The notes below the pieces were generated by a model. That model saw only the letters and a list, made by a program, of their open reading frames with translations. It did not search any database and had not been told where the DNA came from. Made by a program: the position numbers and the translations under genes. From the NCBI GenBank assembly GCA_964474085.1, contig CAYYRJ010000002.1, forward strand, positions 6,110-70,109: a stretch of 64,000 nt of DNA, in the 5' to 3' direction. The stretch is from an uncultured Planctomycetales bacterium. Its GTDB lineage: Bacteria; Omnitrophota; Gorgyraeia; Zapsychrales; JANLHA01. The first letter of the stretch is position 1. Each line of letters opens with the position of its first letter. Shown here one piece after another: positions 35,047 to 63,973 of this stretch.

Positions 35047-35078
35047 CCACTAACCACCAACGACTAACCATTGCTTTT

Positions 35079-37436: not shown

Positions 37437-37451
37437 GGAGAGACAAACGCC

Positions 37452-37868: not shown

Positions 37869-37971
37869 CACTATCAATTCTCTGTTCGGTTAATCGATAA
37901 TTTTGATTTTTGTAATTTGTGTTATTTATATTTTTAAAAAGCTGAAAAACAACTATTGCTAAATTACAAAA

Positions 37972-39276: not shown

Positions 39277-39387
39277 AACCTTTTAAGTAAATTCATGAAG
39301 CGATATTAAAATGTCTGCCATCACGAGAATCCCAAATCGGACAGGCCACGATTAAATGACATGAGTTTTAACTTAAGATAAAAATTT

Positions 39388-40410: not shown

Positions 40411-40439
40411 AAATCTTAATGCAAAATGCAAAATCCGGA

Positions 40440-41030: not shown

Positions 41031-41090
41031 GCGGGATATTATATAGCTGGCTTTTAAAAACCTTAAAAAAATTTTAAGAGGTTTTAAACA

Positions 41091-42119: not shown

Positions 42120-42142
42120 TTAAAACAAAGGAGAACCCAAAG

Positions 42143-42703: not shown

Positions 42704-42715
42704 AACATAATTGAA

Positions 42716-44527: not shown

Positions 44528-44741
44528 GCGCGCCCTCCCTTTTAAATGTTGAAAATCCAGCAAATCATCAAATGCCAGGATATTTGGATTCACATGCTCA
44601 AAATAACCGGCAGGTACTTTTAAGCATATGCTCATAAGTACTATAGTGTTCTTTTGAGCATTTGTAAAATAATATCATGGGGATTTTTAATTCGTTTTTT
44701 CCGACGAGATTTTTACAAAACAACGATTAGCTATGGAGAGA

Positions 44742-45857: not shown

Positions 45858-46838
45858 CTAGATATCCCAATCAAACTGGTTAGATTTACGTCGATCCGCT
45901 TTATTACGCATAATCAACTGATTTTCTTCGTAAACCACCAAAGAATTTGCAGGGACGCTGTGCATAATAAAAACATTGGCGCCGATTGTGGAGTTAGCGC
46001 CAACAACGGTATCACCGCCTAAGATTGTTGAGTTGGGATATATGGTGACATTACTTTGAACATCCGGATGGCGCTTGCCGCCTTTGACAATATGGCCGCT
46101 GTCATCTTTTGCAAAACTTCGTGCGCCCAAAGTGACCCCATGGTAGAGCTTGACGCGCTCTGCGATGCGGCATGTTTCACCGATAACTACACCAGTCCCA
46201 TGGTCTATAAAAAAATACCGCCCTATTTCGGCGCCCGGATGTATATCAATCCCGCTACGGCTATGCGCCCATTCAGTCATCATTCGGGGAATAATCGGGG
46301 CGCCCGACTTATATAAGACATGCGCCACGCGTTGTATGGCCATAACTTCTATAAAAGGATACGCCAAAATAATCTCTTCACGAAGCCGAACAGCGGGATC
46401 ACCTTCAAAAGCGGCTTCGATATCAGTTTGCAAAAGCTCGCGGATACTAGCAAGAGCGCAGCAAAACTCTTTTAAAATCGGCGGAGTTCGCCCGGTAGGT
46501 TTATGTGGATCACCGACTCGAACAGCTTTTCGGACTTGATCTTCGAGCTTTTTTGCGACACGTTCAAAACGGCTCGAGGTAATTTCTGCTAAAGTTGAAT
46601 GCGAAAGAGCATCATTGTCATGAAAACCCGGAAAAATAATTTGAAGCAAATCCTCACAGATCTGACCGACCGCACGCTTTGAGGGCATATTGTGGACGTC
46701 GCGGTGATTAAGCCCGCCGACCTTTTCATACGATTCTAAAAGGCTGGGGACATAAATTTGATACGCTCCATCCGAAGGCTGTGCTTCAAGAAGTTCTTTA
46801 AGCGAATCTTTAAGTGGAGAAAAATTTTTGTCCGACAT
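45858..46838 (-). CDS. cysE: serine O-acetyltransferase, long form with N-terminal extension
   Basis: SATase_N-like helix region then hexapeptide LbH DIHPGAEIGRYFFIDHGTGVVIGETCRIAERVKLYHGVTLG. Confidence 0.85.
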   Translation of the reverse strand: MSDKNFSPLKDSLKELLEAQPSDGAYQIYVPSLLESYEKVGGLNHRDVHNMPSKRAVGQICEDLLQIIFPGFHDNDALSHSTLAEITSSRFERVAKKLEDQVRKAVRVGDPHKPTGRTPPILKEFCCALASIRELLQTDIEAAFEGDPAVRLREEIILAYPFIEVMAIQRVAHVLYKSGAPIIPRMMTEWAHSRSGIDIHPGAEIGRYFFIDHGTGVVIGETCRIAERVKLYHGVTLGARSFAKDDSGHIVKGGKRHPDVQSNVTIYPNSTILGGDTVVGANSTIGANVFIMHSVPANSLVVYEENQLIMRNKADRRKSNQFDWDI

Positions 46839-46844
46839 GGCATT

Positions 46845-48590: not shown

Positions 48591-49503
48591 CTGTTAATAC
48601 TGCCGCCGAAAAATAACGGGTAACCAAATGCGAAGCGATCGAATATTCATTAGTGCTCATATACCGGACGGAAAGACCGTCTTCAATTTCACCGGCCACA
48701 CCCGCCTTTTGCAAACCAACGACGCCTTGTTCGTTTTCACCGACGCGTAACAATAAAATACTTGTCGTGGCGGTATTTTTGTTGACTTTAAGCGCCAATT
48801 TATCGCTGGGCACCAAGGGAACCCCGCGCCAAGTTAAAAACGGAACCCCAAAAAGCTGCACTGTCGGCGGAGGAACTCCGCGTCGGGTACATTCCCGGCC
48901 AAAAGCCGCTATCGCCTTAGGATGAGCCAAAAAGAAAGCCGGTTTTTTCCAAACTAAACTTAAAAGTTCATCCAAATCATCAGGCGTAGGCGATCCTTTT
49001 CGGGTGCTGATTGTCTGGTCGGAAGAAATCTCACGAATAAGTCCAAAATCCGGATTGTTGATCAGCTCCCACTCTTCTCTTTCCTTAAGAGCTTCGATAA
49101 TCAAGCGGATCTGCTCGCGCAATTGGTCAATCTTATTGCTGTAAAGATCCGTGACGCGCGTATGCGTATGAACGACGGTTTGAATCGTGCTCAAATGAAT
49201 TTCTCGGGGATGTTTTTCATAATTGACAAAAGTCGTCGGCAATTTGGGTTCGCCGCTTTCAACCGTCAAGAGATCAACCTTGGCCTCGCCATGTCCGCCC
49301 GGACTATTGTCATCTTTAGATTTTGAAACACGATTCAAACGGTAAACACCGCCATCAATATGCACATACGGCAAAAGACGCAACAGCCAACGCGGGGTAA
49401 TCTGCGCCATTTGCGGGACCGTAACCGTCGCGGTCGCGAGATTGCGCGCAACAAAAGCGCTTAAACTTAATTGTGGATGGGATTGATCTGATGACTTTAC
49501 CAT
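48526..49503 (-). CDS. candidate Family 2A encapsulin shell protein (HK97-fold nanocompartment), context-based call
   Basis: 325-aa soluble protein immediately upstream of and overlapping a cysteine desulfurase with a long disordered N-terminal domain, followed by a long-form CysE. This gene order matches the described Family 2A encapsulin sulfur-storage operons; no domain recognisable by eye. Confidence 0.5.
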   Translation of the reverse strand: MVKSSDQSHPQLSLSAFVARNLATATVTVPQMAQITPRWLLRLLPYVHIDGGVYRLNRVSKSKDDNSPGGHGEAKVDLLTVESGEPKLPTTFVNYEKHPREIHLSTIQTVVHTHTRVTDLYSNKIDQLREQIRLIIEALKEREEWELINNPDFGLIREISSDQTISTRKGSPTPDDLDELLSLVWKKPAFFLAHPKAIAAFGRECTRRGVPPPTVQLFGVPFLTWRGVPLVPSDKLALKVNKNTATTSILLLRVGENEQGVVGLQKAGVAGEIEDGLSVRYMSTNEYSIASHLVTRYFSAAVLTDDAIAQLQNVEINNYHSYDKS

Positions 49504-49830: not shown

Positions 49831-50727
49831 CTACAACCAACAATCTGACTCGTGCTCAACATCAAATTTATAAATCAACTGGATTCGTTTTTTTATCTCG
49901 ATCAATTTGGGGTCAGTTCTTATTCTTGGTCTTGGCAGAGCAACAGGAATGGTGTTACGGATCGATCCTGGCGCCCTTGAAAATACAATAATCTCATCTG
50001 ATAGATAGACAGCTTCGTCCAAATCGTGTGTCACAAGAACAATAGTCTTACCAGTTAAACTCCAAATTTTTAAAAGGTCATCCTGAAGATCCTCTCGACT
50101 TTGAGTATCGACCGCGGCAAATGGTTCATCCATTAATATAATTTCAGGCTCAAAGGATATTGCTCTTGCCAGCGCAAGTCTCTGACGCATTCCACCCGAA
50201 AGCTGAGATGGATACTTATTTCTTGATGCCTCAAGTCCAACCCCCCTCAAATATTGTCGAGCCAAATATTCGCGTTCAGAAACCGAAACCCCACGCATAC
50301 GCAATGTAAAAGTAACATTTTCAAGCGCTGTCATCCACGGGAACACAGCATAATCTTGAAAGATCATGGCAATATCGTGGCGTGACCGATCTTTTACCAA
50401 ACTATTGGATATAGGAGAAAGAAACCGATACTTCTTGCGATAAGCCTCAATTTCATCTCTTGATGCAGGCAACGGTTCGAGAACCAGCTTGCCATTGATA
50501 TAAACTTGTCCGTCCGACGGCGCCTGAAGCCCCGCCAAAATTTCCAAAAACGTTGATTTCCCGCACCCGCTAGGGCCAACCAAGGAAACAATTTTTCCCT
50601 TAGGAATAGAAAGCGAAACAGAATGGACAGCCGTTAATCCTTCCGCTGTCCGGTCGGGATTCACAATAGAAAAAAATTTCGTAATTCCACGCGCTTCAAT
50701 CATACAAATTACCGACCCACTTTCCAA
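49831..50727 (-). CDS. ABC transporter ATP-binding protein, NitT/TauT (sulfonate/nitrate/taurine) family
   Basis: Walker A GPSGCGKST, signature LSGGMRQR, Walker B IILMDEPF; alternative start at 50703 (MIEARGITKFF). Confidence 0.85.
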   Translation of the reverse strand: MESGSVICMIEARGITKFFSIVNPDRTAEGLTAVHSVSLSIPKGKIVSLVGPSGCGKSTFLEILAGLQAPSDGQVYINGKLVLEPLPASRDEIEAYRKKYRFLSPISNSLVKDRSRHDIAMIFQDYAVFPWMTALENVTFTLRMRGVSVSEREYLARQYLRGVGLEASRNKYPSQLSGGMRQRLALARAISFEPEIILMDEPFAAVDTQSREDLQDDLLKIWSLTGKTIVLVTHDLDEAVYLSDEIIVFSRAPGSIRNTIPVALPRPRIRTDPKLIEIKKRIQLIYKFDVEHESDCWL

Positions 50728-51554
50728 ACAGCCAGTTTTAACTCAATAAATTTCATGATTTCAATCAGAAACCACCCGAACGCGCCCAGGACAATCATGC
50801 ATACAACCATACGGCTTATCAAAAAGAAATCCTTGGATTCAACCAATAAAAACCCTATTCCGGTCCGGCCCCCGTTCATTTCTGCAATCACAAGCATCAC
50901 TAAACCAAGTGCAATGCCGATCTTGATCCCCATGATAATCGAACTAAGCGCATGCGGCAAATAGACATACCGTATTAACGTTAATTCGCTAGCCCCAAAT
51001 ACTCTTGCTGAAGCTACATAACGAGGGTCCGTATCTTTAACACCCTGATAAGTATTAAACAGCACCGGATAAAAGACACCAAGAAAAATAAGAAATGTCT
51101 GCATCGGCAATCCAACACCAAAAATGATAATGGTCAAAGGCACCCAAGCTGGCGGCGGTATCGGAGCTAACAATTGAAAAAGAGGCAAGCAATGCTTACG
51201 GATATACAAATTCCAGCCCATAGCTGTTCCGATTGGGAGAGCCAACAACAACGCAAAGAAAAATCCAAAGAAGAATCTTTTCAAACTGTCCGCCAAATGA
51301 CCAAGTAAATTTTTATGCAGTAGCATATCTACAAATGTTTTAGCAACTTCAGACGGGGGAGGAACAAGCGACCGAGGGACAACTCCTATCGAGGGCAAAA
51401 TTTCCCAAAGAATCAAAAGAGGAATAATAACTTTCAAAAACTCTCGTGTCACGAGGCTACCAGCTGAATTCTTCAAAAACAAGAATAATTCACTGCGCAC
51501 CTTGTCGACAAGACGAATTTCGTGTTGGTTATCATCTTTTTTAATATTATCCAT
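50709..51554 (-). CDS. ABC transporter permease, NitT/TauT family (SsuC/TauC-like)
   Basis: 281 aa, six TM helices, conserved permease EAA-like loop region (ARVFGASELTLIRYVYLP). Confidence 0.8.
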   Translation of the reverse strand: MDNIKKDDNQHEIRLVDKVRSELFLFLKNSAGSLVTREFLKVIIPLLILWEILPSIGVVPRSLVPPPSEVAKTFVDMLLHKNLLGHLADSLKRFFFGFFFALLLALPIGTAMGWNLYIRKHCLPLFQLLAPIPPPAWVPLTIIIFGVGLPMQTFLIFLGVFYPVLFNTYQGVKDTDPRYVASARVFGASELTLIRYVYLPHALSSIIMGIKIGIALGLVMLVIAEMNGGRTGIGFLLVESKDFFLISRMVVCMIVLGAFGWFLIEIMKFIELKLAVWKVGR

Positions 51555-51568
51555 GTCTTACAATCCCG

Positions 51569-52489
51569 CTATTTATTTTCATGGCCATGATGATCTTCAC
51601 CTGCAGAATGACGATGTCCCCTTATTGCGTCTAGCATCGCTTGCGTGACATCAGTATATGAAGACAACGGCAACTGCGATAAAGCAGAATCAGGGTAACC
51701 CAAATTCCGGGCAACAGATTTTCTAACGAGTTCAGGCGAAACAGTCTCCGCCAACTTCAAGTCAGCAATCAACTGATCAAATCGTCTGTCCCCCTTTTTT
51801 ACCACAAAAAGCCATTCGATCTGGGCGATGATCGCTGGGCAACATTCATCTCCGGCGGCCACATCCCAATTCTGATACAACAACGAATGGCCCTGTAATT
51901 CTGCCAGTGCCGCATAAGACCCTTTGACCAAAATGGCATCGACCACCCGCGCTTCCAGCGCAGGTAACATCGTGTCAAAAGTCAAAACCGTTGTTTGTAA
52001 GGAATCCACGTTCAGCCCGAGCCTCTTTGCATCCCTACGGAACTGTTTCCAAAGAACACATGACGGACCTGACACCGCAATTTTCTTCCCGACAAGCTCC
52101 GGTAATCTTAAATGAAAATCTTTGCGCATAACCAATGCCGCACCATAAGGGAAAGTGATCGCCCCTTTAAACTCAAACTGCCCCTCCCCACCACGCTCAA
52201 TAAATGCAAAAGTTGTTTTGTCAACAAATCCTGCAGGAATTGATCCCGACAAAAGAGCGATGCCAACATCACTGCTTGACGAAAACCTCTTAGGGGCGAC
52301 CCTTCCGTCTGCTTTCTCTTTTGCCATATCAAGGGCGATGAAAAAAGGTGCTAAAAGAGGGGTGGCGACATATCCAACAACTGGCAACTGCGGACTTTGT
52401 AATGCCTTAATTGCGATCAAAGTCGTAATCAAGACAATAAAGGTCATTAGAAAGACTAGAACTTTGTTTTGATAATATGACGCCACCAC
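51569..52489 (-). CDS. NMT1/THI5-like (SsuA-like) substrate-binding protein with N-terminal membrane anchor
   Basis: N-terminal TM helix, then periplasmic-binding-protein-like sequence; adjacent to the NitT/TauT permease and ATPase. Confidence 0.6.
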   Translation of the reverse strand: MVASYYQNKVLVFLMTFIVLITTLIAIKALQSPQLPVVGYVATPLLAPFFIALDMAKEKADGRVAPKRFSSSSDVGIALLSGSIPAGFVDKTTFAFIERGGEGQFEFKGAITFPYGAALVMRKDFHLRLPELVGKKIAVSGPSCVLWKQFRRDAKRLGLNVDSLQTTVLTFDTMLPALEARVVDAILVKGSYAALAELQGHSLLYQNWDVAAGDECCPAIIAQIEWLFVVKKGDRRFDQLIADLKLAETVSPELVRKSVARNLGYPDSALSQLPLSSYTDVTQAMLDAIRGHRHSAGEDHHGHENK

Positions 52490-52514
52490 GCCTCCACTTA
52501 ATTAGATAACCTTA

Positions 52515-53459
52515 TTACCAAGTCACGTTTTTAAACTCCTCAGCATAAAGCTTGTCACCAGGATTTTCCTTGATCGTACCGATGGCAACTAATTCATCGG
52601 CTAAAGCACCCAAGCCTTCGCGGTCAAGATTCGTCTGAAACTTGAGACGTCCATTACCATGAGCAATGGCATCTTTGGGCGCACCGGTAAATTGCTGGGC
52701 GATCGTAAGGATCTCCTCGGACGTTGGATCGTTTAAAATCAACTCGTTGGCTTTTTGAATTGCTTGAATAAATTTCTTTACCGCGTCGGGATTTTGCTTA
52801 ACGAACGCCTTACGCGCATTGATCGTGCGGCAAGGAATATTGGAAGAAGCATCCTTGAGAATAACCTTGAACCCTTTGAGCTCGGCAATACTGACATGTG
52901 GCTCCTCAAGGATCGCGCCATCGACCTTGCCAGCTTCAAGAGCGGCAATAGCCGGTCCACCAGCCAGTTTTTCAAGATTGAAACTTCCGCCAGCCTCACG
53001 CACTTTCCTGGTATAAGAAATGACCGCTTCGCACGTCGGAGATATTCCGGCGATTTTTTTACCGATCAAATCGCTGTAACTGCGGATCGGAGATCCTTGC
53101 GGAACAACGAGGACTGATGTGCAGGGCTTTTTGACTTGTGCGATAAGGCAGATTGGAGCGCCGTTGGCAGCCGCGCTAATTGCCGCTGTCGGGCAGGTAA
53201 AATAAATATCCGCTGATCCTGAAACCACCAGATCGCGTGACGCCGCGGCGTCCACAACAGGCACAACCGTTACGTCGAGACCTAACTCGGAGAAATACCC
53301 TTTTTCCTTTGCAACGTAAAGATTTAGGTGATGCGTTGTTTTTGCATCAGCTACATAAATCTTCACCGAACCCTGACCCGCTTGTGCACCCGCAGGGACA
53401 GTCGAAAAAAGCAAAGATGCCCCTAAAATAAATGATGTTATTTGATTTGTTTTTTTCAT
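52515..53459 (-). CDS. NMT1/THI5-like (SsuA-like) ABC substrate-binding protein, secreted
   Basis: Signal peptide MKKTNQITSFILGASLLFSTVPAGAQA; KIYVADAKTTHHLNLYVAKEKGYFSELGLDVTVV typical of SsuA/TauA/NMT1 binding proteins. Confidence 0.75.
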   Translation of the reverse strand: MKKTNQITSFILGASLLFSTVPAGAQAGQGSVKIYVADAKTTHHLNLYVAKEKGYFSELGLDVTVVPVVDAAASRDLVVSGSADIYFTCPTAAISAAANGAPICLIAQVKKPCTSVLVVPQGSPIRSYSDLIGKKIAGISPTCEAVISYTRKVREAGGSFNLEKLAGGPAIAALEAGKVDGAILEEPHVSIAELKGFKVILKDASSNIPCRTINARKAFVKQNPDAVKKFIQAIQKANELILNDPTSEEILTIAQQFTGAPKDAIAHGNGRLKFQTNLDREGLGALADELVAIGTIKENPGDKLYAEEFKNVTW

Positions 53460-53533
53460 AAATTTCCCTTTCTTAGATTGATTCTACATAAGAAGCCTTT
53501 ACCAAAAAAATAGAAGGATATATTTGCATCTGT

Positions 53534-54823
53534 TTAAAACTTATACAGGAATGTCGTTTGAACGCGATGAGCATCCGCTTTCTGTTTATCAAACCACTTG
53601 GTATTAAAAGTTTGATACTCAAGAGCCACAAGAATATCCTTGCTTAAGCTGTATTTCACGTTGGTATAGTACGTTTTATTAACATCCCAAAGAGCACTTT
53701 TATCGGCGTTTGAATAAGCAGAATTATCTTTTACATCATCAATACCGATACCAAAGTTAGCTTCGACGTTGTTAACCGGGATGTAAGACAATTCAGCAAA
53801 ACCACCTTTGACTTCAATGGGTTTGCGATTGGCTTCTCCGGTGCGAGAGTCTAGCGTTTGCGCAGGCCCCCCACTGAATTTGTTTAAACCTTTTCCAACG
53901 AAACCTTCACTCTTAAAGGAAAGCCAATCCGTTAATTTAAGCGTCAAACTTACGGTTGTCGCCGCAAGCTCTTCGCTTCCAAGTCCCTTGCCAATAGTGT
54001 TAAACCGACCATAAAGACCGCCAACCCCTAATGTCGATTTAATCCCATAAACTGTTTTATCATATTGGGCATAGGCACCCAAAACCGGCAAACCGGAATC
54101 TTCCTGAACGGAATCATCAGAGTCTAGGGCGCCGACTTTGGTTGTCACAACTCCGCCTAAGGCCTCGCCCCACTTATTAGTGAGCGTAATCTGCGCATGC
54201 CGGACACCGATATTCCCGGATCTAAATAAGTACCCCGGATTCACCAGATTAGGCATTAAAGGGGCTACGAAATCCCAATCCTGCCCCGCCCGTAAACTCC
54301 ATTTCTGAAAAGATAAATCGGCATAGGCTAAACGCAAACGTGGCGTATATGTGCCGACCGTACTCCCACCAAAAAAATCAAATTCTACCTTCCCTGACAA
54401 TTTCCCACCGTTAAATAAATCAGGCGCTTTAAGATTTAAGCCCAACCGTGTATCCTGAGCTGAAAACTGTGTTTCAGGGTCATCTGATACGCTTGGACGA
54501 CTTGCATTGGTTTGAAGTGTTGAATTGACACCATTTCCTCCAGCATCACCACTAGAAAAAACCAAGTCCGTTTTAACCTGACCGTATAACTCAATTTCCC
54601 CCTTTGATTTGACAAAATTTCCTGCGCTAGGATTAGGTTTAGCCTTAAATTCTGATAACTCGTTTTTCTGCACAGCGTTTTCTCTTTCAAGCGAATCAAC
54701 ACGTGACGTAAGAGTCTTTATCTGTGTCACTAAGTCCTCCGTCTGATCTGCTGATGCTGGCATAGCAACACCGACCACCACAAATACGGCAGACCAAAAT
54801 CCTAATAAGTATTTCCTAGTCAT
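53534..54823 (-). CDS. outer-membrane beta-barrel porin-like protein with N-terminal coiled-coil segment
   Basis: Signal peptide (MTRKYLLGFWSAVFVVVGVAMPASA), alternating amphipathic beta-strands, C-terminal aromatic beta-signal ...TTFLYKF; strong RBS AAGGAG before ATG 54823 (tracker start 54883 less likely). Confidence 0.6.
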   Translation of the reverse strand: MTRKYLLGFWSAVFVVVGVAMPASADQTEDLVTQIKTLTSRVDSLERENAVQKNELSEFKAKPNPSAGNFVKSKGEIELYGQVKTDLVFSSGDAGGNGVNSTLQTNASRPSVSDDPETQFSAQDTRLGLNLKAPDLFNGGKLSGKVEFDFFGGSTVGTYTPRLRLAYADLSFQKWSLRAGQDWDFVAPLMPNLVNPGYLFRSGNIGVRHAQITLTNKWGEALGGVVTTKVGALDSDDSVQEDSGLPVLGAYAQYDKTVYGIKSTLGVGGLYGRFNTIGKGLGSEELAATTVSLTLKLTDWLSFKSEGFVGKGLNKFSGGPAQTLDSRTGEANRKPIEVKGGFAELSYIPVNNVEANFGIGIDDVKDNSAYSNADKSALWDVNKTYYTNVKYSLSKDILVALEYQTFNTKWFDKQKADAHRVQTTFLYKF

Positions 54824-55412
54824 TATCTTCTCCTTTTTTTTGTGTTTGACTAATTCACCATTTTGTATGTAATCGCCTAACAAAATGCATTAAGCGTCAT
54901 ATCTCCCCAGAACCAGACCTTAATAAAAAAAGTCCTTATTAAATACCTTTGGGCTCGCAGAGCTTATTGCTCCGTAGTCAATTCAAAAGTTATTTGCCAA
55001 TAATTTTTGGCAAATAAAAAGGCCCAAAACACATTCGGGTTGAACCGAAAATATTTTGAGCCTCCAGATGTCTGGTGAGCCTGTTTATTAATGAAGCTTC
55101 AACACAACAACTTGCCAACTTAAATCACACACGACAAAAACAATTTTTCACAACTCAAACCACAATGCCTACTATCCCTATAGTCTTTATAGGCTTATAA
55201 TTTAGCATAAAAAATTTTCTTGTCAACATTTTTTATTTCCTATTACATTTCAAGAGTAAAAGATATTAAACACAATAACTTACAACTCAAACCGCTTCCT
55301 AAGAAATCTATTAAAAATACACTTAAAACTCCTTGATGAACCTTCTTCGAAAACTTTACGACACAAATCTACAAAAACCCTCAAAATTTCTTTCGCCTCT
55401 CACGATCTAAAT

Positions 55413-58400
55413 CTAGTTAGTTATTTCGCTTAATATTGGTACGGTCTGGACATTAATCGGCATAATATTAAGGATAACCGGATAAAAACCATTTACATGA
55501 ATATCCTCTAAATCTTTTTGCGAGAAAGACAGATGCCCACGACTCCGATCTTCATCACCCTCGATCTGCAAGTTGAGTTTAGAAGGATCAAAGTTAATAC
55601 CACCGAGATTTTTATGGACCGCTGGAAAAAAAGCAGCTTCATGTCCATTAACTGCGTTTAAAACGACACCGTCTTTTTGTTTATCTAAAACGTTTTTCTC
55701 TACCCGTCTAGATAATTCGTTTCGTGCCCATGCAAAAATAAGTTCATACATCTTGTCCCCCGCAGAAACACCACTGGCTTTAGCGAACACTTCTCCCTCA
55801 TTGAAAGCAAGAACTCTTTTCCAAGAAGATCGAAACCAATACTTAATCGCAAATGGCCGAAAAAGCACACTTTCCGACGATCCTTTTGCCCAATATTCGA
55901 GATATTCCTTATCCAATGCAGCAAAATATGTTTGAAAAAAAGTTTGTATCATTTCGGCGGAAGACGGCAAAATATATTTTTGATCAGGCTCAGTGTATCT
56001 AACAATGTCTTTTATATCCTCGAGCACAGAAAGCATACCTGCCGTGCTAATTCTATACTTGCGCAATGTTTCGATATCTTTTTCAGTAGCTTTTCCTTTT
56101 TCAACATAAACAACAAAATCATTGTAGGAAAGAAATTCTTCATTGTCTGATTCTTGAAAAAACGGGAAAACGATATCTTGAGGATGTATCGTTTTTTTGA
56201 ATAATTGCTTATTTTGTTTTTCTGCTTCAGCCAAAGCTCTTTTTTCGACTCCTGCTAAGATCAATTCTTTAACTGACAAAATCTTCCCCGCAGGCAACAT
56301 GTTTAACTCCACCATTCTTCTCGATATTCTTCGACGCAATCGCTCGAATCCCGGATCGCCATTAAGAATTTGACGAAACTTGGTTAATCGCTGCGGGTAT
56401 ACTACTCGATTAAATATGAGGACAGGAATAAACTTCGACCCATCCTCATCTTGAAAAAGATCCAGATTTTTTACGGAAACTAGATTGCCATTCCCGTCGG
56501 GTATCTCATTTAAATATTGATACCCCAAAATTTCGACAAACAAACCTTTTGTATTCTCTAAGATTTTACTAGCAGCCATGGCCGCCTTGGCTTCTTTTTC
56601 AGAGGCTAATCCCCAGTTTCTCGAAGATGCTAATTCCGGGTTTCTTAATAGTTCAGGCATACTTTTCACTGAGAAAAAAGGAGGTTTATCCTCATATACG
56701 TACTGACCTGATCCTTTTATACTAAACCAAGAAGAGGCATAGGCCTGCCTCCCATTGGCGACTCTAAATCCGGGGCTAAAAGTTTCATCCGCCGAACTAA
56801 ATCGATCGGTGATCCCAATAAATATTTTAGTTTCCGGGTTTTGACGTAATGCCCTAAGAGCAACCTCTGCATTGCCAATTAGAAAACCGCGATGTTCTTT
56901 TATATAATCCCGTATCGGCTTACCATCAATATACTCAACAGCCCTATTATTATTGACGACCATATCACCAACACTATGATCGGGCAATGATTGCAAAAAT
57001 TGCGGCCTCAAGGAAGGGTCATCTAATAAAATTTGTTTAACTTCCAAAGTAAACAAATCTAAAAGTGGTTGATAATGATGTTCCTTGTGTTCAAAGTCAG
57101 GGAAGATAGAATCTTGCCTCGTTAAATAAGCTCGCCATTTACTCTTAAATTCTTCTGGGGATAAATCTTCTGCCAAATTTACTTCCTGGGTCTTCGCGAT
57201 ATTAACGAAACCATCCTCGGCAGGATTAACTTTTCTGGCGTGGTGACTTTCCGAAACACGGGAAGAAACAAGCACGACTTGGTTTTCCTGCAAATCGCTA
57301 ATCGCGCGCACAGCCAGATCACGTCCGCGATCATCAATGACGGTTAATGAACTCGAAGCAAAGCTCATCACTTCTCCACCCGAGAAATATTTTCGAGGAA
57401 TCATTTCCCCATCGGGGCCGTCTTCTTCCTTGATAAGGTTATATGCGCCGTTTTTGAATGCTTCCAAATACTTCTCATAAACTTCTTGCTTAATATCTTG
57501 AACATCGCTTTCAAGACCTGCGACTTTCGATTTGTCGGTGTAAATTCTGCTAAACAAAGAGTCTTTAAGCGCCTTTTTATACCAAGCCGCTAAAATGACG
57601 CTTTGATAAACTTGGCGGGTCGCGGCAAAATTCTTGCCCGTGTTGACTTCTTCAATAAGCTTAGGCAAGATCAGCTCGCGAAAAACCGCGGTGGAAATGG
57701 AAACGACAGAAGAACCCCTATTTATCTGTAGGGGCGTATTGCAATACGCCCCTACGGCATTATTTTCATATTCCTCATCTAACATCACCTTTAATTTACT
57801 TTCCGTAATGTAAGCAAAGCCGTCCTTTTCGACAACTGTTGCGCCGTCGGGAACGATCCAGACTTTATTCTGTAGGGGTGTATTACAATACGCCCCTACG
57901 GCAATGCTTCGTTCATTAACTGTATCCCAGAATCTTTTCCCCAAATCCGTATCCGGATTGGTCAAAGACGCAGCCAACTGCTTTAAAACATAATCCTGTT
58001 CAAGCATTTGTCGACCCATTTCGGTTTGTCCGAGAGCATCAGGAACGATACGATCTTTCTCATACGGTGATAGATTAACCCACGCGTCCTTATCAGGAAT
58101 AGTGATGGAAGCTAAAAAGTATTTTATGAGTTTTGTGCTTTCGTTTTTGAGGGTCGCATTATCGATCCTCTCCTGCCCGCGATCGACGATAAAATCAAAC
58201 AAAAACGGATTTTCAGGATGAACCGTCATCCCTCTTAATACGGGCGGTTGAAAAGCGACCGAAGTCGCAAAGTCTAAAGGGATACCGATCCGACCCGCGG
58301 CGAGGCCAGAGGTAAGCCAAACCATCTGCCCTACCAAAAACGCCAGCAGAATAAAGCCGCTCATAGCTTTGCGAAACCCAAATTTATCTTTAACAAGCAT
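55413..58400 (-). CDS. giant secreted protein 2 (about 995 aa); N-module and C-module shared with giants 1 and 3; unknown core
   Basis: N-module LIKYFLASITIPDKDAWVNLSPYEKDRIVPDALGQTEMGRQMLEQDYVLKQLAASL...VWIVPDGATVVEKDG; C-module KNLGGINFDPSKLNLQIEGD...VNGFYPVILNIMPINV; start ATG 58400 (MLVKDKFGFRKAMSGFILLAFLVG, signal-peptide-like) preferred over 58481, which would overlap the small ORF at 58403-58630. Confidence 0.75.
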   Translation of the reverse strand: MLVKDKFGFRKAMSGFILLAFLVGQMVWLTSGLAAGRIGIPLDFATSVAFQPPVLRGMTVHPENPFLFDFIVDRGQERIDNATLKNESTKLIKYFLASITIPDKDAWVNLSPYEKDRIVPDALGQTEMGRQMLEQDYVLKQLAASLTNPDTDLGKRFWDTVNERSIAVGAYCNTPLQNKVWIVPDGATVVEKDGFAYITESKLKVMLDEEYENNAVGAYCNTPLQINRGSSVVSISTAVFRELILPKLIEEVNTGKNFAATRQVYQSVILAAWYKKALKDSLFSRIYTDKSKVAGLESDVQDIKQEVYEKYLEAFKNGAYNLIKEEDGPDGEMIPRKYFSGGEVMSFASSSLTVIDDRGRDLAVRAISDLQENQVVLVSSRVSESHHARKVNPAEDGFVNIAKTQEVNLAEDLSPEEFKSKWRAYLTRQDSIFPDFEHKEHHYQPLLDLFTLEVKQILLDDPSLRPQFLQSLPDHSVGDMVVNNNRAVEYIDGKPIRDYIKEHRGFLIGNAEVALRALRQNPETKIFIGITDRFSSADETFSPGFRVANGRQAYASSWFSIKGSGQYVYEDKPPFFSVKSMPELLRNPELASSRNWGLASEKEAKAAMAASKILENTKGLFVEILGYQYLNEIPDGNGNLVSVKNLDLFQDEDGSKFIPVLIFNRVVYPQRLTKFRQILNGDPGFERLRRRISRRMVELNMLPAGKILSVKELILAGVEKRALAEAEKQNKQLFKKTIHPQDIVFPFFQESDNEEFLSYNDFVVYVEKGKATEKDIETLRKYRISTAGMLSVLEDIKDIVRYTEPDQKYILPSSAEMIQTFFQTYFAALDKEYLEYWAKGSSESVLFRPFAIKYWFRSSWKRVLAFNEGEVFAKASGVSAGDKMYELIFAWARNELSRRVEKNVLDKQKDGVVLNAVNGHEAAFFPAVHKNLGGINFDPSKLNLQIEGDEDRSRGHLSFSQKDLEDIHVNGFYPVILNIMPINVQTVPILSEITN
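57728..57755. repeat. 28-bp perfect palindrome inserted in-frame in giant gene 2 (copy 1)
   Basis: GTAGGGGCGTATTGCAATACGCCCCTAC; translated on the minus strand as AVGAYCNTPLQ. Confidence 0.7.
57872..57899. repeat. 28-bp palindrome inserted in-frame in giant gene 2 (copy 2, two mismatches)
   Basis: GTAGGGGTGTATTACAATACGCCCCTAC; also translated as AVGAYCNTPLQ; the two copies flank the conserved VWIVPD...ITESKLKVMLDEEY segment. Confidence 0.7.
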
Positions 58401-58660: not shown

Positions 58661-61600
58661 TTAAACGTCTGAATGCTCCAACTGCGATTTAAACCCCAAA
58701 AAAATCGGCATATTTACCGGCGTCATCGGCGAGATATTTCTAATAACAGGCACAAGCCCCGGGATATCAAGCAATGCCGGATCCTGAAACTGCACAGGTA
58801 ACACGAACCCTTTATCATCAACTTTGACATTGATCTTTAAATTATTCGCATCAAGGTCAATACCGCCAACCGGCGCTGAGGCAACACTTGCGGCGGCATC
58901 TGAATCCGGCAAAAGATAATACGGAAACAAATGCGGCAAAATAACCTCTCCTGCTTGACGAGAAGCAATCGAATTATAATTGCGATGATTCCCTATGCCG
59001 GTGACATCCGCCTGCGGCACAATCAGAACACCAGCCACACTTTCTTCGCCGTCTCTGACATCCAAAACAGTGATATCCGCGCCGTCTGAAAGCGGATGAT
59101 CGCCGCGCTTTATCCCTTGTGTGTTGATCCATGCAACTTTTGCATTAAACGCGTTTCCTTTAATGGATCCGATAACTCGCCTGCTTTCTAAACCCTGCTC
59201 ATCAACTAAGACATAATCGGTATCTTTGTCAAAAGCCGCAGACCTTAAAAAGTTTTGCTCGTCGGGACTGACCGTCGTAAATTTGACGCGTTGTTGTCCC
59301 GAAATTTCAAAAAGATGTCCATCGTTTTCTTGAAACTGCTGGATTAACTTATCCGCCGAGGAATCTTTTTTTGTCACAACCACAATGTTGATGGGTTTAC
59401 CGTTTGGTTTTGCGGCCGTGTCAAAAACCCAATGTTTCAACAGAAGATTAACCGCCCCGGCAAATGACGGCGCGGAAATTCCCTGAACTTCCTGACTAAA
59501 GGCCTTTGCGGCACCGGCTTCAGCTGTCGCTAAAAGTAGCTGCGCTGTTGCGCTCGCCGGATTTCCAAAACGTCCATATGTCCGGTAAGATCCCTGAGCA
59601 GGAAAAGAACCACTGCTAGGATCCCCCGCCTTGCCATTCCAACCAAAACCAGTTTTAAGATCATCCGGGTCATCCGCGCGAAAAGCGTTTGATGGATTGC
59701 CGCCGCTGGCAACCAGCGAGCGATGGTCTCCGCTTAACAATCCCCAAATGGACGTATGATGTATAAACAATGTGTGCGGATTATATTTTGTGATCAGCGT
59801 CGCATCGTTGATCAGCTGCGCTGTTTGTTTAAGAGGATTTTCCGAGATAATAAAATAGTCCCGAACCCGGTCAAGTTCGGCAATTGACGCATTGATATCC
59901 GGTTCCACGCCGTAGGCGCCTTTTGTGTCACGCTTGACGACTGGATACTTGCGCAACGCGTAGCCTGTTTTTCCGTCGACATTTGTTGTCGGCTGCATAA
60001 AAATAGTGTCGAGCTGCGCGAACGGAATTTTTTCAAACTTGCCATCGTATATTTTAAGAATCTCAAAAATAGCGTCTAATTCACGCAAAACATCCTTTGG
60101 ATCCTCAATTCCCACAGCCCAGCGAATACCCCCACGCGTGACCCCGCCTTGGCGCAGTTCTTCGTCACTTAATCCCGATAGCGCGCCATAACCGGGCATT
60201 TGCATGAGGTTACGAACATCACCTAGGCTCACAGCGTGTTCAATAGTTCGAAAATACCGTAAAAGCGCCATAAACGCTTTCGCGCGCTCTTCTGTTTTCA
60301 AATCAAAATAAATCATATGTCCCGGGTTATCCATCTGCTTTTGCGCTAAACCATATTGTGGATGCGTTTGATCGCCGGGATAACGCACAAACTCAACCTG
60401 AGGATTCTTTTTTAACCACTCGACATAAAATCGGGCGTTTTCCTGCTGCCGAAAAAATCTTCTTTCCAAATTCGGCAATCCGTAACGCAAAAGTTTAATC
60501 GCATCATCCCTATTGATCGGCTCGGCCCGAGAATTTCGCAATTCTTGCGCGATCTCTTTTTGGGCAACAATGACCGCGCCAAAAACATTTCCGTCGCCGG
60601 AAAGCCCTTTGGTCACAACCTGAACAACCGCGTCAACACCAAAATCTAGCGGCTGTTGGCCTAAGGATGTTGCAAATGATCCGTCGAAAATAATAAACGC
60701 TTGCGGTGAAACAGAACTGCGCACCGCGTCAACTGTCCGCTTAATACTAATAATCGGCAAGGAAGGATTAGCCGGAGTTTCAAAAATCAAAGCCGCTGTA
60801 TTTCGAGATAACTCCTGCGCAAGTTGATTTTCCGGATCAGTCACAATCTTAACCTTAAGGCCATATTTCCTATATAATTCAACATCGCCTTCTGTCCCGC
60901 CGTAAGCCGGACGAATTAAAATTATTTCAGGAACCAAAGCAGGATTTTGTTCAGTAAATTTTTTTAACGCGTATCGCAGCGGCAAATGCACACCAGCAAC
61001 ACCGGAAGCAACACTAACACCGGCATATTGCTCTGTTACTAAATTTCGTGTCTCAAGCGCTGTGATCGCCTGCTCAACTTGTTCGACAGGATTCAAAACG
61101 ATTTGAGGTGTATTCCCAGAACCATTATTCCCGCCAGAGCCGGCTTTATTTGCGATTGGAGGTTTTCTTGGTGCTCGGGCTTTTGCCACAGGCTTTTGTC
61201 CCAAAGCTTCTTGCGCAACCACAACCCGAAGCTCATCTAAAGTCTCTGTTTTTGCGGCAATGGGACTGATGCTATCCGATATAAATCCCTGTGCTGTCCC
61301 GACGCTAATTCCTTCATCTTCCAAAACAACATCTGGTTTATTTTCTGATGTATTAACAGGAAGAATTCGGTTTGTATCAACAACGGTCTGATCTGCTAAA
61401 ACTGTTTTTGTAACCGTAGCGTTAGCTCCAATTTGAGCCCCTTTACCGACGGTGATCGGTCCTATGATCTGTGCTCCGGCGCCTAAAGTGACATCATCTT
61501 CAACAATGGGGTGTCGGCGACCGTCAATCGTATTTTTATTTGCGCCAAGGGTCACGCCATGCAAAATATAAACATTGTTTCCAACGACAGCTGTCTGCCC

Positions 61601-63973
61601 TATAACAACACCTGTCGCATGATCAAACAATACGCCATCGCCAATTGTCGCGCCTGGATGAATATCCACCCCGAAATTGTTCGTGATCGCATTTTGTAAA
61701 GCTAAAGCCAAATCCTGCCTGTCATTAAGCCACAGCCAATGTGCGATGCGATAAGCCGCAAGCGCGTGGAACCCTTTAAAATTAAGGAATGGATTAGAAA
61801 TATCCCCGGACGCAGGATCACGTTCAAGCACAGCCAAAAGATCGCGGCTAACTGAGTTAAGAATATCCGGCGATGCGTTTAACACTTGCAATATTCCCTG
61901 CTTTAGCTTATCAACATCAAATACGTCTGAGCGGAGTTTACTTGCTAATAAATTAGCAAGCGCCGTTTTAAAATCTGGTGCGGAAAGGATCGTTTTTTCA
62001 AGAGGCGCAGAAAGAAGCGGCTCTTGTTTGGCAACACGGCCAGCATTTTCTTTTAAACGATTCCAGAGAGAATCCAATTGCGCCGAATCAGAACTGCTAT
62101 CTGCCTTACCGCTAGTATCTCCAACAACTTTTAATGCTGGTTTTTTTGTCGACGTTTTTGCGGCTTTTTCTGCCCGCTTTAAATTTGTTGAACTTTCCGT
62201 CTTCGCGTAAACTCTTTTTAATTGCGCTAAACGTTCCCATGCTTCTTCTGGATCAATCGAATCAATCTGGCGATCATCTCGATGGGCTCTTAAACTTTCG
62301 GCAATTGCTTTTTCGGAAACAACGATCAACCCTTTTGAATTTTGCTGCGCAAGCGTTGTGGTTGCCTTATTTAAACGTGCCCCGCTGAAAGCAACAAGCG
62401 CTTGCGGATTTTTAGCATTGACCGTCTGGATAAATTGCTGCGAACTTTCTGATTTCGCAAATGGGAACAATACAATAGCAGTTTGTTTTGTCAAAACTTC
62501 GGTTAACTGTTCAATATTCTTAACAATGTGCACTTGCTGTGAATTACGACGAGCATATTCGCCAATAACGCTATCTTGCGGCGTATCTTCAGGGATATAA
62601 AATACTACTTGGCCGGCTTGGCCGGTAAATTCAGGTTTTGTTTTTGCAAAATCGATCAGATGACCTACAGCTGAGAATTGATCCGCATAACTGACACCGT
62701 CAAAATCGCCTTTTTCTCCTGAAAAATGCACACGCGCAGTCAAATGCTCAACGGACCGCACCTTTTGATCGACTCCCAAATCCGAAAAATCATTGTAAGC
62801 TGATCGTATCGCATTGACCAAATCCGTATCAACTATATCCGGTGATTTGCCGTTTAAAAGTCGGTTCACCGAGCTTGAGGATACATTAGTGTTAATAATC
62901 GTCGGGTCAACGCCCAGCATCCCGCCGGAAAAATATTTACGAGGCAAAGTCTCATGCGTTAGCGGATCTTCTTCTTCCTTAATATAGTTAAACACCCCGA
63001 CCTTAAAAGCCTGCAAATATTGTTCATAAATTTTTTCTTTAGCCTGCGGGTCATCAACCTGCACACCCGCGACTTTATTCTTATCCGTGTAAACTTGCGC
63101 TAAAAGTGTTTCCTTGAGTGTTTTTTTATACCATGTCGCGAGAATCATTGAATTGTAGATCTGGCGAAGCGGCGCAAAGTTTTTGCCCTCGTTGACTTCC
63201 TTTTCGATGATCGGGATAATAATTTCGCGTACCGCGTTTAAAGTATATTCCTGATTTTCTGTGGAACTTTCAGGTTGCACCGTCTGTCCGCCGGAAGCCA
63301 AAACTTTGCTGTTTTCTTTTTCGGCCAGATAATCTTTTTCGAGCATGACTTTCAAATGGCTTTTTACCAAAAACGCAGTGCCGTCTTTTTGATAAATATC
63401 TGCCTGATCGGCACGAATCCAAATTTTATTAAATGTATTAATAGGGATATCTGTCGTCTTAAATTTTTCATATGCCTGACTATACACTTTTTGCCAAAAT
63501 CCACGACCAATATCCTCTTCTGGATACATCAAAGAGGCTGTAAATTGTTTTAGAATATAATCCTGTGCTAAAAGTTCTTTTCCGGTGTTCGTTTGCTCAA
63601 GATTTTTGCCAATGATCCGATTAGACTCATAAGGCGAAAGATTAACCCACATGTCTTTATTGGCAACCGTCAAAGATGCAAGAAAATGCTTAATGAGTTT
63701 TGTGTACTGTTCTTTCTGCTGATTGGCACTCAAAAGCTCATCGCCCTTGTCCATCACAAAGTAAAAGTGGAAAGGGTTTTGCGGGTCGATCTTTAAACCG
63801 ATCATCTGCGCCGGAGTAAAAATGCCGGTCGGCTGCAACATTTGCCCGATGGGAGAAAGCAAAGGCACAGCTTGCGCATAACCCGACTGCGCAGGCAACG
63901 CGCTTAGCATAAACACAATAAGTGCAATCGCGATTGGACGAAACAAAGATTTTTTCTTAATTTGCTGAAACAT
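58661..63973 (-). CDS. giant secreted multidomain protein 3 (1770 aa): shared N-module, complete CysE-like serine acetyltransferase, complete PLP-dependent Cys/Met-metabolism (CGS/OAS-OAH sulfhydrylase family) domain, shared C-module
   Basis: Signal peptide MFQQIKKKSLFRPIAIALIVFMLSALPAQSGYAQA. N-module HFLASLTVANKDMWVNLSPYESNRIIGKNLEQTNTGKELLAQDYILKQFTASL. Residues about 700-860: GFHALAAYRIAHWLW...DIHPGATIGDGVLFDHATGVVIGQTAVVGNNVYILHGVTLG (SAT). Residues about 955-1305: ASGVAGV...YGGT...ETPANP...FDGSFATS...GVDAVVQVVTKGLSGDGNVFGAVIV...GIRWAVGIEDPKDVLRELDAI (PF01053-type, PLP lysine K1122 at nt 60608-60610). Confidence 0.8.
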   Translation of the reverse strand: MFQQIKKKSLFRPIAIALIVFMLSALPAQSGYAQAVPLLSPIGQMLQPTGIFTPAQMIGLKIDPQNPFHFYFVMDKGDELLSANQQKEQYTKLIKHFLASLTVANKDMWVNLSPYESNRIIGKNLEQTNTGKELLAQDYILKQFTASLMYPEEDIGRGFWQKVYSQAYEKFKTTDIPINTFNKIWIRADQADIYQKDGTAFLVKSHLKVMLEKDYLAEKENSKVLASGGQTVQPESSTENQEYTLNAVREIIIPIIEKEVNEGKNFAPLRQIYNSMILATWYKKTLKETLLAQVYTDKNKVAGVQVDDPQAKEKIYEQYLQAFKVGVFNYIKEEEDPLTHETLPRKYFSGGMLGVDPTIINTNVSSSSVNRLLNGKSPDIVDTDLVNAIRSAYNDFSDLGVDQKVRSVEHLTARVHFSGEKGDFDGVSYADQFSAVGHLIDFAKTKPEFTGQAGQVVFYIPEDTPQDSVIGEYARRNSQQVHIVKNIEQLTEVLTKQTAIVLFPFAKSESSQQFIQTVNAKNPQALVAFSGARLNKATTTLAQQNSKGLIVVSEKAIAESLRAHRDDRQIDSIDPEEAWERLAQLKRVYAKTESSTNLKRAEKAAKTSTKKPALKVVGDTSGKADSSSDSAQLDSLWNRLKENAGRVAKQEPLLSAPLEKTILSAPDFKTALANLLASKLRSDVFDVDKLKQGILQVLNASPDILNSVSRDLLAVLERDPASGDISNPFLNFKGFHALAAYRIAHWLWLNDRQDLALALQNAITNNFGVDIHPGATIGDGVLFDHATGVVIGQTAVVGNNVYILHGVTLGANKNTIDGRRHPIVEDDVTLGAGAQIIGPITVGKGAQIGANATVTKTVLADQTVVDTNRILPVNTSENKPDVVLEDEGISVGTAQGFISDSISPIAAKTETLDELRVVVAQEALGQKPVAKARAPRKPPIANKAGSGGNNGSGNTPQIVLNPVEQVEQAITALETRNLVTEQYAGVSVASGVAGVHLPLRYALKKFTEQNPALVPEIILIRPAYGGTEGDVELYRKYGLKVKIVTDPENQLAQELSRNTAALIFETPANPSLPIISIKRTVDAVRSSVSPQAFIIFDGSFATSLGQQPLDFGVDAVVQVVTKGLSGDGNVFGAVIVAQKEIAQELRNSRAEPINRDDAIKLLRYGLPNLERRFFRQQENARFYVEWLKKNPQVEFVRYPGDQTHPQYGLAQKQMDNPGHMIYFDLKTEERAKAFMALLRYFRTIEHAVSLGDVRNLMQMPGYGALSGLSDEELRQGGVTRGGIRWAVGIEDPKDVLRELDAIFEILKIYDGKFEKIPFAQLDTIFMQPTTNVDGKTGYALRKYPVVKRDTKGAYGVEPDINASIAELDRVRDYFIISENPLKQTAQLINDATLITKYNPHTLFIHHTSIWGLLSGDHRSLVASGGNPSNAFRADDPDDLKTGFGWNGKAGDPSSGSFPAQGSYRTYGRFGNPASATAQLLLATAEAGAAKAFSQEVQGISAPSFAGAVNLLLKHWVFDTAAKPNGKPINIVVVTKKDSSADKLIQQFQENDGHLFEISGQQRVKFTTVSPDEQNFLRSAAFDKDTDYVLVDEQGLESRRVIGSIKGNAFNAKVAWINTQGIKRGDHPLSDGADITVLDVRDGEESVAGVLIVPQADVTGIGNHRNYNSIASRQAGEVILPHLFPYYLLPDSDAAASVASAPVGGIDLDANNLKINVKVDDKGFVLPVQFQDPALLDIPGLVPVIRNISPMTPVNMPIFLGFKSQLEHSDV

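Follow-up and report, generated by a model that had tools for sequence, protein, structure and literature searches.

A signal-peptide protein of Omnitrophota that joins a serine O-acetyltransferase to a PF01053-family PLP enzyme between a conserved head and tail

The subject of this analysis is a 1,770-residue protein encoded in a 64,000-nucleotide stretch of an uncultured Omnitrophota genome (assembly GCA_964474085.1, contig CAYYRJ010000002.1, positions 6,110 to 70,109; hereafter the window). The protein, the third of three large related proteins in the window and here called giant 3, carries a serine O-acetyltransferase (SAT) and a pyridoxal 5'-phosphate (PLP) enzyme of family PF01053 in one chain. 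This fusion is real, conserved and catalytically plausible. The open reading frame (ORF) occupies 58661..63973 on the minus strand and begins at an ATG with AGGAG 7 nt upstream. The reading frame remains open for 9 further codons upstream of the ATG, as far as the edge of the window. Two observations settle the start codon: orthologues share this first methionine, and a database protein of 1,770 residues is identical. Positions below are those of the window.

58661..63973, minus strand: giant 3, complete ORF, 1,770 residues, no cysteine; identical to a 1,770-residue database protein
63872..63973, minus strand: predicted signal peptide, residues 1-34, with n-region KKK..R, 14-residue h-region PIAIALIVFMLSAL and c-region PAQSGYA↓QA, read from the sequence
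62849..63871, minus strand: head domain (N-dom), residues 35-375, 44-46% identical to two window paralogues
62174..62791, minus strand: psi-PLP0, residues ~395-600, degenerate large PLP-binding domain
61328..62083, minus strand: SAT (SATase_N plus left-handed beta-helix), residues 631-882, from Pfam, NCBIfam and PDB matches
60059..61096, minus strand: PLP domain 1, residues 960-1305, PF01053 large and C-terminal domains, N-terminal Tyr/Arg segment absent
60608..60610, minus strand: codon of the Schiff-base lysine, Lys1122
59654..60058, minus strand: connector, residues 1306-1440, a small beta-rich module common to all tandem-PLP proteins
58889..59653, minus strand: psi-PLP2, residues 1441-1695, N-terminal segment and large domain of a cystathionine gamma-synthase (CGS)-family enzyme, from hhalign
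59558-59578, minus strand: YGRFGNP motif in psi-PLP2, residues 1466-1472
58664..58876, minus strand: tail (C-tag), residues 1700-1770, about 70 residues, from a local hidden Markov model (HMM)

The chain thus runs signal peptide, head, psi-PLP0, SAT, PLP domain 1 (predicted active), connector, psi-PLP2 (dead, Tyr/Arg kept) and tail. Six full-length orthologue clusters have the same SAT and PLP architecture at 40-64% identity to giant 3. The linkers at residues 600-630 and 880-960 are rich in Lys, Ser, Ala and Pro, and could be candidate processing sites.

The SAT domain is a complete enzyme by every motif examined. Pfam places SATase_N (PF06426) at residues 636-739 (E 5.8e-28) and Hexapep (PF00132) at residues 821-856 (E 3e-12). 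The closest solved SAT, 3gvd from Yersinia (E 3.7e-62), aligns end to end, with RDPA, DIHP, DHATG and RRHP all aligned; in giant 3 these lie in ERDPA (717-721), VDIHPGA (769-775), FDHATG (783-788) and GRRHP (818-822). The motifs RDPA, DIHP, DH and RRHP, which supply the catalytic Asp/His pair together with the residues for serine binding, are kept in 7/7 SAT-bearing sequences. A preliminary description of this DNA had placed a full SAT at about residues 700-860. The enzyme is indeed present, but it begins near residue 631, and the earlier boundary removes two thirds of SATase_N. Against the NCBIfam models the domain scores 233.9 for PRK11132 (cut-off 397), 190.3 for TIGR01172 (cut-off 210.65) and 152.1 bits for the EpsC-type model NF041874, just over its cut-off of 150. 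The free C-terminal Ile tail for CysK binding is absent from the giant 3 SAT, since the domain is internal, with about 890 further residues downstream. After the beta-helix, at residues ~845-882 (61328-61440), it does retain an internal stretch (...GTAQGFISDSISPI) similar to the C-terminus by which free SATs bind CysK.

PLP domain 1 is likewise intact at its catalytic positions. Cys_Met_Meta_PP (PF01053) matches residues 964-1303 (E 9.4e-54), above the gathering score and with the expected fold, and the closest solved relative is methionine gamma-lyase (MGL) 7bqw (E 2.2e-42). The recognisable motifs are AYGGT (1023-1027), ETPANP (1065-1070), FDGSFAT (1096-1102), VVTKGLSGDG (1119-1128) and GIRWAVGIED (1282-1291). 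Within them K1122 (Schiff base), D1097 (pyridine N1), Y1024 (PLP stacking) and R1284 (substrate carboxylate) are invariant in nine sequences. The motifs quoted in the preliminary description, including the Lys1122 codon, were all found at the places given there, and the domain search it had proposed as a check returned SATase_N, Hexapep and Cys_Met_Meta_PP from Pfam. Its reading of residues 955-1305 as a full PF01053-type enzyme requires one amendment: the catalytic residues are intact, but the PF01053 match begins at profile position 55/381, domain 1 lacks the N-terminal segment with the conserved Tyr-x-Arg, and there is no conserved Tyr/Arg upstream of it.

The chemistry judged most likely couples the two enzymes. 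SAT would supply O-acetylserine, and the PLP site would exchange its acetate for sulfide or a thiol, with cysteine or a thioether as product. This serine-to-cysteine reaction is drawn from the logic of the fusion, because all NCBIfam subfamily models score far under their cut-offs for PLP domain 1. The best of them is MGL (TIGR01328, 170.5 bits, cut-off 549.7); the OAH/OAS sulfhydrylase model (MetY/Met17, TIGR01326) reaches 132 bits against a cut-off of 495.1 and matches in two stretches. The sulfhydrylase-like label given earlier to the domain therefore finds no specific support, and the domain belongs to neither subfamily. It differs from both in lacking an N-terminal Tyr/Arg segment of its own, and from MGL in that the hallmark Cys (YGCT) is Gly in giant 3 (AYGGT).

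That the best match is MGL counts against O-acetylserine chemistry, and so do certain non-canonical contacts to the PLP phosphate (Ser to Val at 1119, DNT to DGS). The same scores suggest a serious rival, in which PLP domain 1 would be a C-S lyase of MGL or cystathionine gamma-lyase type, releasing H2S or methanethiol, ammonia and a keto acid from Met, homocysteine or Cys for sulfur or carbon scavenging. SAT would then be an add-on in one subclade that at most recaptures sulfide. The closest matches in both NCBIfam and PDB sequences fit this proposal, as do stand-alone tandem homologues that match MGL best (201.9 bits) and retain the MGL-type YGCT. It is also consistent with the occurrence of the PLP tandem without SAT, described below. 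On the other side stand the distance of every score from its subfamily cut-off, the replacement of the hallmark Cys by Gly, and a covalent SAT fusion kept in six clusters, which argues that O-acetylserine is used by the neighbouring domain. On balance a lyase function is rather improbable.

The missing Tyr/Arg segment directs attention to the two other PLP-fold domains of the chain. In structures of CGS, cystathionine beta-lyase and MGL, an N-terminal Tyr-x-Arg segment completes the active site of the partner subunit. Between the head and SAT, psi-PLP0 aligns with PLP domain 1 in a profile comparison (Prob 98.9, E 3.4e-17), yet all of its cofactor-binding motifs are destroyed: YGGT has become EDTP, ETPANP has become PFAKSE, FDG has become FSG, and the Lys segment is deleted. 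The domain folds with a predicted local distance difference test score (pLDDT) above 90 in the AlphaFold2 (AF2) model. The second degenerate copy, psi-PLP2, is visible only by profile-profile comparison; phmmer of residues 1311-1770 against PDB sequences gave no match (best E 0.32). The profile of residues 1379-1694 aligns with positions 14-271 of 440 of canonical CGS-family proteins (hhalign, Prob 93.8, E 1.8e-7), and psi-PLP2 aligns with PLP domain 1 at Prob 96.6.

In psi-PLP2 the Lys position is Asp and the position of the Asp that binds PLP N1 is Ile. What has been retained is YGRFGNP, which aligns with the YSRxxNPT of canonical enzymes. Y1466, R1468 and G1470 are invariant in 10 tandem proteins, including stand-alone ones that are only 27-33% identical in the psi-PLP2 region. 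This pattern suggests that PLP domain 1 and psi-PLP2 may form a single-chain pseudo-dimer, in which psi-PLP2 would lend Tyr1466 and Arg1468 to the Lys1122 site within the same chain. The SAT beta-helices would trimerise, and each chain would bring its own pseudo-dimeric PLP enzyme. As proposed, the single-chain arrangement would thereby avoid a clash between the 3-fold symmetry of SAT and the 2-fold symmetry of PLP enzymes. The passenger of giant 3 would accordingly be a four-part sulfur-amino-acid module: psi-PLP0, a complete SAT, an active CGS-family PLP domain without its own Tyr/Arg segment, and psi-PLP2.

Two observations tell against this arrangement. The YGRFG loop, which would make the proposed contact, has a pLDDT of only ~50 in the AF2 model. 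In addition, the PLP unit does not depend on SAT: the tandem occurs without it in two orthologue clusters (P0008 and P0009) and in five free-standing proteins (P0121-P0125), which are 784-925 residues long and each have their own signal-peptide-like N-terminus. Because of these SAT-less proteins, the tandem is taken as the older unit and SAT as an insertion in one subclade. One of the free-standing proteins, P0123, lies in locus L002 (226-9849), a metagenomic contig of an AT-rich organism, where it adjoins a 780-residue hexokinase. The N-termini of the hexokinase and of two other proteins of the locus resemble that of P0123 and lead into an L-R-[VL]-P motif. These N-termini suggest a second, head-less way of tagging metabolic enzymes.

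A precedent for a dead half serving a live one exists in the single-chain glycine decarboxylase P-protein, where two homologous fold-type I halves are joined, one binds PLP, and the dead half takes the place of a partner subunit. Giant 3 belongs to a different PLP family. Its dead half lies C-terminal to the active one and apparently retains only the trans-acting Tyr/Arg; it also has a third, dead copy and an inserted SAT, and its pseudo-dimer is deduced rather than solved.

With two of the three PLP-fold domains clearly dead, the preliminary description's concern that the catalytic domains might be degenerate deserves a direct answer. The residues of SAT and PLP domain 1 are intact and kept in orthologues, and degeneracy is confined to the two further PLP-fold domains. 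A broader form of this concern is that all the enzyme-like domains are pseudo-enzymes with a structural or ligand-binding part in a surface protein, for example an adhesin or coat; such roles have been proposed for Omnitrophota giant proteins (PMC10066038). Such a reading is improbable. Orthologues as distant as 40% identity preserve the full catalytic sets of SAT and PLP domain 1 without change, and an otherwise decayed domain has retained the trans Tyr/Arg, as selection for catalysis would produce.

Among the closest known systems is the cysteine synthase complex of CysE and CysK, in which a SAT of the same fold and motifs is physically coupled to a PLP enzyme able to use O-acetylserine. In giant 3, by contrast, SAT is covalently joined to its partner, which is of fold type I (PF01053) where CysK is of fold type II; SAT lacks the free C-terminal Ile, and the protein has a signal peptide and no Cys. 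Against this background, the new element is a SAT fused to a putatively pseudo-oligomeric PF01053 enzyme and mounted on a carrier family that lacks a published description; the literature search found no account of the head/tail family or of a SAT-PF01053 fusion.

The carrier is best defined by the paralogues of giant 3 in the window:

55413..58400, minus strand: giant 2, about 995 residues from Met28, same signal peptide, head and tail; passenger without a domain recognisable to Pfam or NCBIfam
9111..13904, plus strand: giant 1, about 1,597 residues from Met24, same signal peptide, head and tail

The three proteins are alike over an N-terminal region of about 370 residues at 44-46% identity. 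Giants 1 and 2 match directly over their C-terminal ~65 residues, and the tail HMM finds all three tails. The passengers of giants 1 and 2 (500-1,100 residues) have no Pfam domain, and the sole NCBIfam match is a weak folK-like one in giant 1. Head motifs are LPxPG (degenerate in giant 3, SPIG), NPFHFYF, WVNLSPYE, SHLKVM, EKEVNEG and PRKYFSGG; the tail consensus of the family is GGIDLN..L.LQIKRDG.G.PLP..Q....I.GF.PVI..I.P..NLPLLLG. One of the alignments (A3) contained a wrong row, the C-terminal part of giant 1; the row entered the AF2 job and the profile job but was excluded from the local HMM. By the local HMMs, giant 3 has both hallmarks, with the head directly after the signal peptide and the GGIDL...PVI..I.P tail at the C-terminus. 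The most conserved head motif, WVNLSPYE (residues 109-116; 63626-63649), has the lowest AF2 confidence (pLDDT ~47-53), and in the model this segment may be a functional loop, a binding site or a processing site.

Beyond the window, a head profile search returned 8,249 representatives (50%-identity clusters) among 1.84 billion, 6,650 of them with E<=1e-30, and the head is N-terminal in every one. A one-genome-per-species scan gave 38 loci, and all those with a head domain are Omnitrophota metagenome-assembled genomes, some of them labelled Planctomycetales. The single-protein genome scan mostly returned paralogues matched via the head, and the top homologues of whole giant 3 are Omnitrophota proteins of 1,000-3,000 residues that resemble it in the head only. 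Two loci, L036 and L040, resembled SAT-bearing relatives by their tblastn ranges. L036 was rejected: the passenger of its ORF is unrelated, with AAA-ATPase-like P-loop motifs and, by eye, beta-propeller-like repeats. Local HMMs applied to 569 kb of such DNA found head and tail together in 32/35 tail-bearing ORFs, the exceptions being contig-end cuts or a frameshift. The tail is at the extreme C-terminus in 198/235 representatives, which bears out the earlier description of a conserved C-terminal tag. The head has no Pfam or NCBIfam match and no PDB fold match, and five tails compared with Pfam and NCBIfam at E<=10 matched no sorting-signal or other family.

Giant 3 thus belongs to an extensive family of modular proteins restricted to Omnitrophota, in which a predicted cleavable Sec-type signal peptide, a head of ~340 residues and a tail of ~70 residues enclose a variable passenger of cytoplasm-type enzymes. 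Family proteins span 0.6-5 thousand amino acids (kAA). Passengers include phosphoglucomutase, UDP-glucose pyrophosphorylase, glycogen/starch synthase, phosphoglycerate kinase (PGK), isocitrate lyase with malate synthase, and phosphoribosyltransferase, together with receiver/response regulator, HATPase, GGDEF and helix-turn-helix (HTH) domains and glutamate dehydrogenase (GDH). The fusion in giant 3, earlier called highly unusual, is so only outside the phylum; within Omnitrophota, where the family numbers ~8,200 clusters, many other passengers occur beside it. At locus L001 (4869-21169), which holds orthologue P0005, four family members of 670, 1,752 (the SAT-PLP orthologue), 1,055 (with a GDH domain) and 834 residues lie within 16 kb. 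A DUF134 gene and an ArsP-type permease gene lie upstream there, and a DUF134 gene is likewise present in the window array.

Similar architectures have been met at larger scale in this phylum. The 'multi-enzyme metabolic cluster' giants of Omnitrophota (10.64898/2026.06.07.730766; West-Roberts et al. 10.1101/2023.11.21.568195) pose the same puzzle of location, being signal-peptide or transmembrane (TM) proteins tiled, like the head/tail family, with starch synthase, phosphoglucomutase, receiver, HATPase and hexokinase domains. Those studies cover proteins of at least 10,000 residues; the head/tail family, the SAT-PLP passenger and Cys avoidance are not described there.

The N-terminus of giant 3 has the anatomy of a cleavable Sec signal peptide, in agreement with the secretion-type N-terminus noted at the outset. 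As predicted from sequence, it combines a positive n-region, a hydrophobic core within the 7-15 range and small residues at -3/-1. N-termini across the family carry, in the median, 3 K/R and 0 D/E ahead of the core, followed by an h-region of ~14 residues and then ...SGYA↓Q, with LPxPG near position 39 in 109/120. The giant 3 signal peptide also resembles those of the window's substrate-binding protein and porin-like ORF, both listed below. Positive charges precede the hydrophobic stretch and none follow for ~25 residues; this asymmetry predicts an N-in/C-out topology. Tat export was set aside, as a twin arginine is missing and only one conserved F-R occurs in the n-region. Whereas rapid divergence is the rule for signal peptides, this one is unusually conserved among paralogues (...FR.IA..VI.AF...IPAQSGYAQV, then LPxPG), which may point to a dedicated targeting or processing step.

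A second line of evidence is the absence of cysteine. Giant 3 has 0 Cys in 1,770 residues, as compared to ~1-2% in other window ORFs; at 1.2% Cys, the probability of none is ~5e-10 by our arithmetic. The avoidance extends to the family, where 235 members have 295 Cys in 349,026 residues, 122 of them within the first 35 residues. Met is normal at 2.3%, and sulfur economy was therefore rejected as the cause. Cys-specific avoidance characterises proteins that pass unfolded through the envelope or reside outside the cell, such as autotransporter and TpsA passengers and S-layer proteins. Family-wide Cys avoidance with normal Met thus fits export.

Large, Cys-poor, exported proteins with conserved ends for secretion or translocation and variable enzymatic payload modules are represented by the MARTX toxins and TpsA proteins. 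The likeness of the head/tail family to these is a functional analogy only, and no sequence or fold relation was found. Head/tail passengers are housekeeping metabolic enzymes and not toxins, and a Sec signal is present, unlike in MARTX toxins, which are secreted by a type I secretion system.

Taken together, the signal peptide, the family-wide Cys avoidance and the two conserved ends favour exit from the cytoplasm. Giant 3 would be displayed on the cell or released from it, possibly towards a host cell. Cofactor logic disfavours such a location. Acetyl-CoA, required by SAT, and PLP, required by the PLP domain, are not to be expected outside a cytoplasm, and PLP synthesis is reported to be incomplete in Omnitrophota (PMC10407285). 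Many other passengers need ATP, nucleotide sugars or phosphorelay partners, and some can function only in a cytoplasm (response regulators, HTH, GGDEF, PGK, phosphoribosyltransferases).

These requirements would be satisfied if the N-terminus were uncleaved and giant 3 were tethered inside the producer, at the inner membrane or, via the head, at an internal structure. It would then be a scaffolded cytoplasmic cysteine-synthesis enzyme, and the family an intracellular enzyme-organising scaffold. The nature of the passengers, HATPase domains among them, fits this proposal, and the phylum's larger giants were first read as intracellular metabolic clusters by their authors (10.64898/2026.06.07.730766). 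The charge asymmetry described above points the other way, as does an h-region of only ~14 residues followed by a small-x-small site. Near-total Cys avoidance over 349,026 residues with normal Met has no obvious cytoplasmic reason. Moreover, DeepTMHMM assigned a signal peptide or TM helices to 94% of the giants of at least 10 kAA, whose metabolic Pfam domains are of the same kinds (10.64898/2026.06.07.730766). Retention inside the producer is accordingly considered unlikely, though it deserves weight.

Export signals and cofactor needs would be reconciled by delivery of the enzymes to a host cytoplasm, which is speculation. Omnitrophota have been described as host-dependent or predatory (PMC10066038), and one Omnitrophota predator passes RNA into archaeal cells (PMC13153191). 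The wider idea, that signal peptide, head and tail constitute a phylum-wide export or display system carrying cytoplasmic enzymes and signalling domains out, onto the surface or into a host or prey, is put forward tentatively and is more doubtful than probable.

The gene neighbourhood has a sulfur theme. Between 63973 and 44117 all genes share the minus strand and form an uninterrupted co-directional array, which runs in order through giant 3, giant 2, a porin-like ORF, an NMT1/SsuA-type ABC transporter, a family 2A encapsulin operon, a PocR/GAF protein and a DUF134 protein.

49831..54883, minus strand: genes between the encapsulin operon and the giants, comprising an ABC transporter (NMT1/SsuA-like binding protein, permease, ATPase) and the porin-like ORF
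53534-54883, minus strand: porin-like ORF of 449 residues, no Cys, signal peptide, N-terminal coiled-coil-like stretch, ending ...TTFLYKF, no Pfam match
45858..49503, minus strand: family 2A encapsulin operon, from Pfam and NCBIfam
48526-49503, minus strand: encapsulin shell protein, encap_f2a 448.9 (cut-off 380)
46845-48590, minus strand: cysteine-desulfurase cargo, f2_encap_cargo1 NF041166, 808.8 (cut-off 800)
45858-46838, minus strand: encapsulin-operon SAT, EpsC-type SAT 151.3 (cut-off 150)
44117-44635, minus strand: DUF134 gene

Flanked by giant 2 and the Ssu-like transporter, the porin-like ORF resembles an outer-membrane beta-barrel. A 65-nt overlap with the end of the encapsulin gene makes it probable that the desulfurase really starts at an ATG further downstream; its match to the NCBIfam cargo model begins only at residue 105 of the ORF. 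Further along, 33651-43540 holds genes of a xanthine-dehydrogenase/CO-dehydrogenase-type molybdoenzyme (FAD, 2Fe-2S and MoCo subunits); XdhC and a MobA-like gene lie close by. At 39388-40410 there is a RhuM-family gene, and three consecutive ORFs in 39388-42119 are without Cys.

Like giant 3, the family 2A encapsulin (SrpI) operon of this array pairs a SAT with a sulfur-handling PLP enzyme, and the preliminary description linked the two. The proximity it noted holds: they lie ~9 kb apart on the same strand, within the sulfur-related array. This could suggest that giant 3 is a cargo or docking partner of the encapsulin. The operon is, however, a separate canonical system over its NCBIfam cut-offs, shares no targeting feature with giant 3, and has a SAT only 34% identical to that of giant 3. 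Family 2A cargo is marked by a disordered N-terminal targeting extension, which the adjacent desulfurase has; giant 3 has a signal peptide in its place and matches no NCBIfam cargo model. Its head and tail are common to ~8,200 clusters with unrelated passengers, and a probably oligomeric protein of ~195 kDa is, we reason, an unlikely guest of a small shell. A role in the encapsulin is thus very improbable.

The account that best explains the data as a whole makes giant 3 a member of the head/tail family, with a pseudo-dimeric PLP unit on a SAT trimer, O-acetylserine chemistry and a location outside the cytoplasm; for this combination, belief and doubt are evenly balanced. If PLP domain 1 does pair with a dead domain in which nothing but the trans Tyr/Arg has been kept, the tandem would represent a new single-chain solution for a normally tetrameric family, and such a pseudo-dimer would be of interest for enzyme evolution and engineering. 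It would also represent an adaptation to folding and working after translocation, if giant 3 is indeed exported.

For the family, giant 3 offers a tractable handle: a 1.8-kAA protein with two assayable enzymes, within an unannotated set of ~8,200 clusters. Metabolic domains behind signal peptides, a puzzle raised earlier by the 10-150-kAA giants of the phylum, recur in the head/tail proteins. Were the exported reading true, giant 3 would make cysteine, or process sulfur amino acids, from host acetyl-CoA, serine and sulfide. It would then illustrate clearly how enzymes of central metabolism can be built to work beyond the cytoplasm of their producer. Because SAT needs acetyl-CoA, its site of action would show how ultra-small, host-dependent Omnitrophota exploit their partners.

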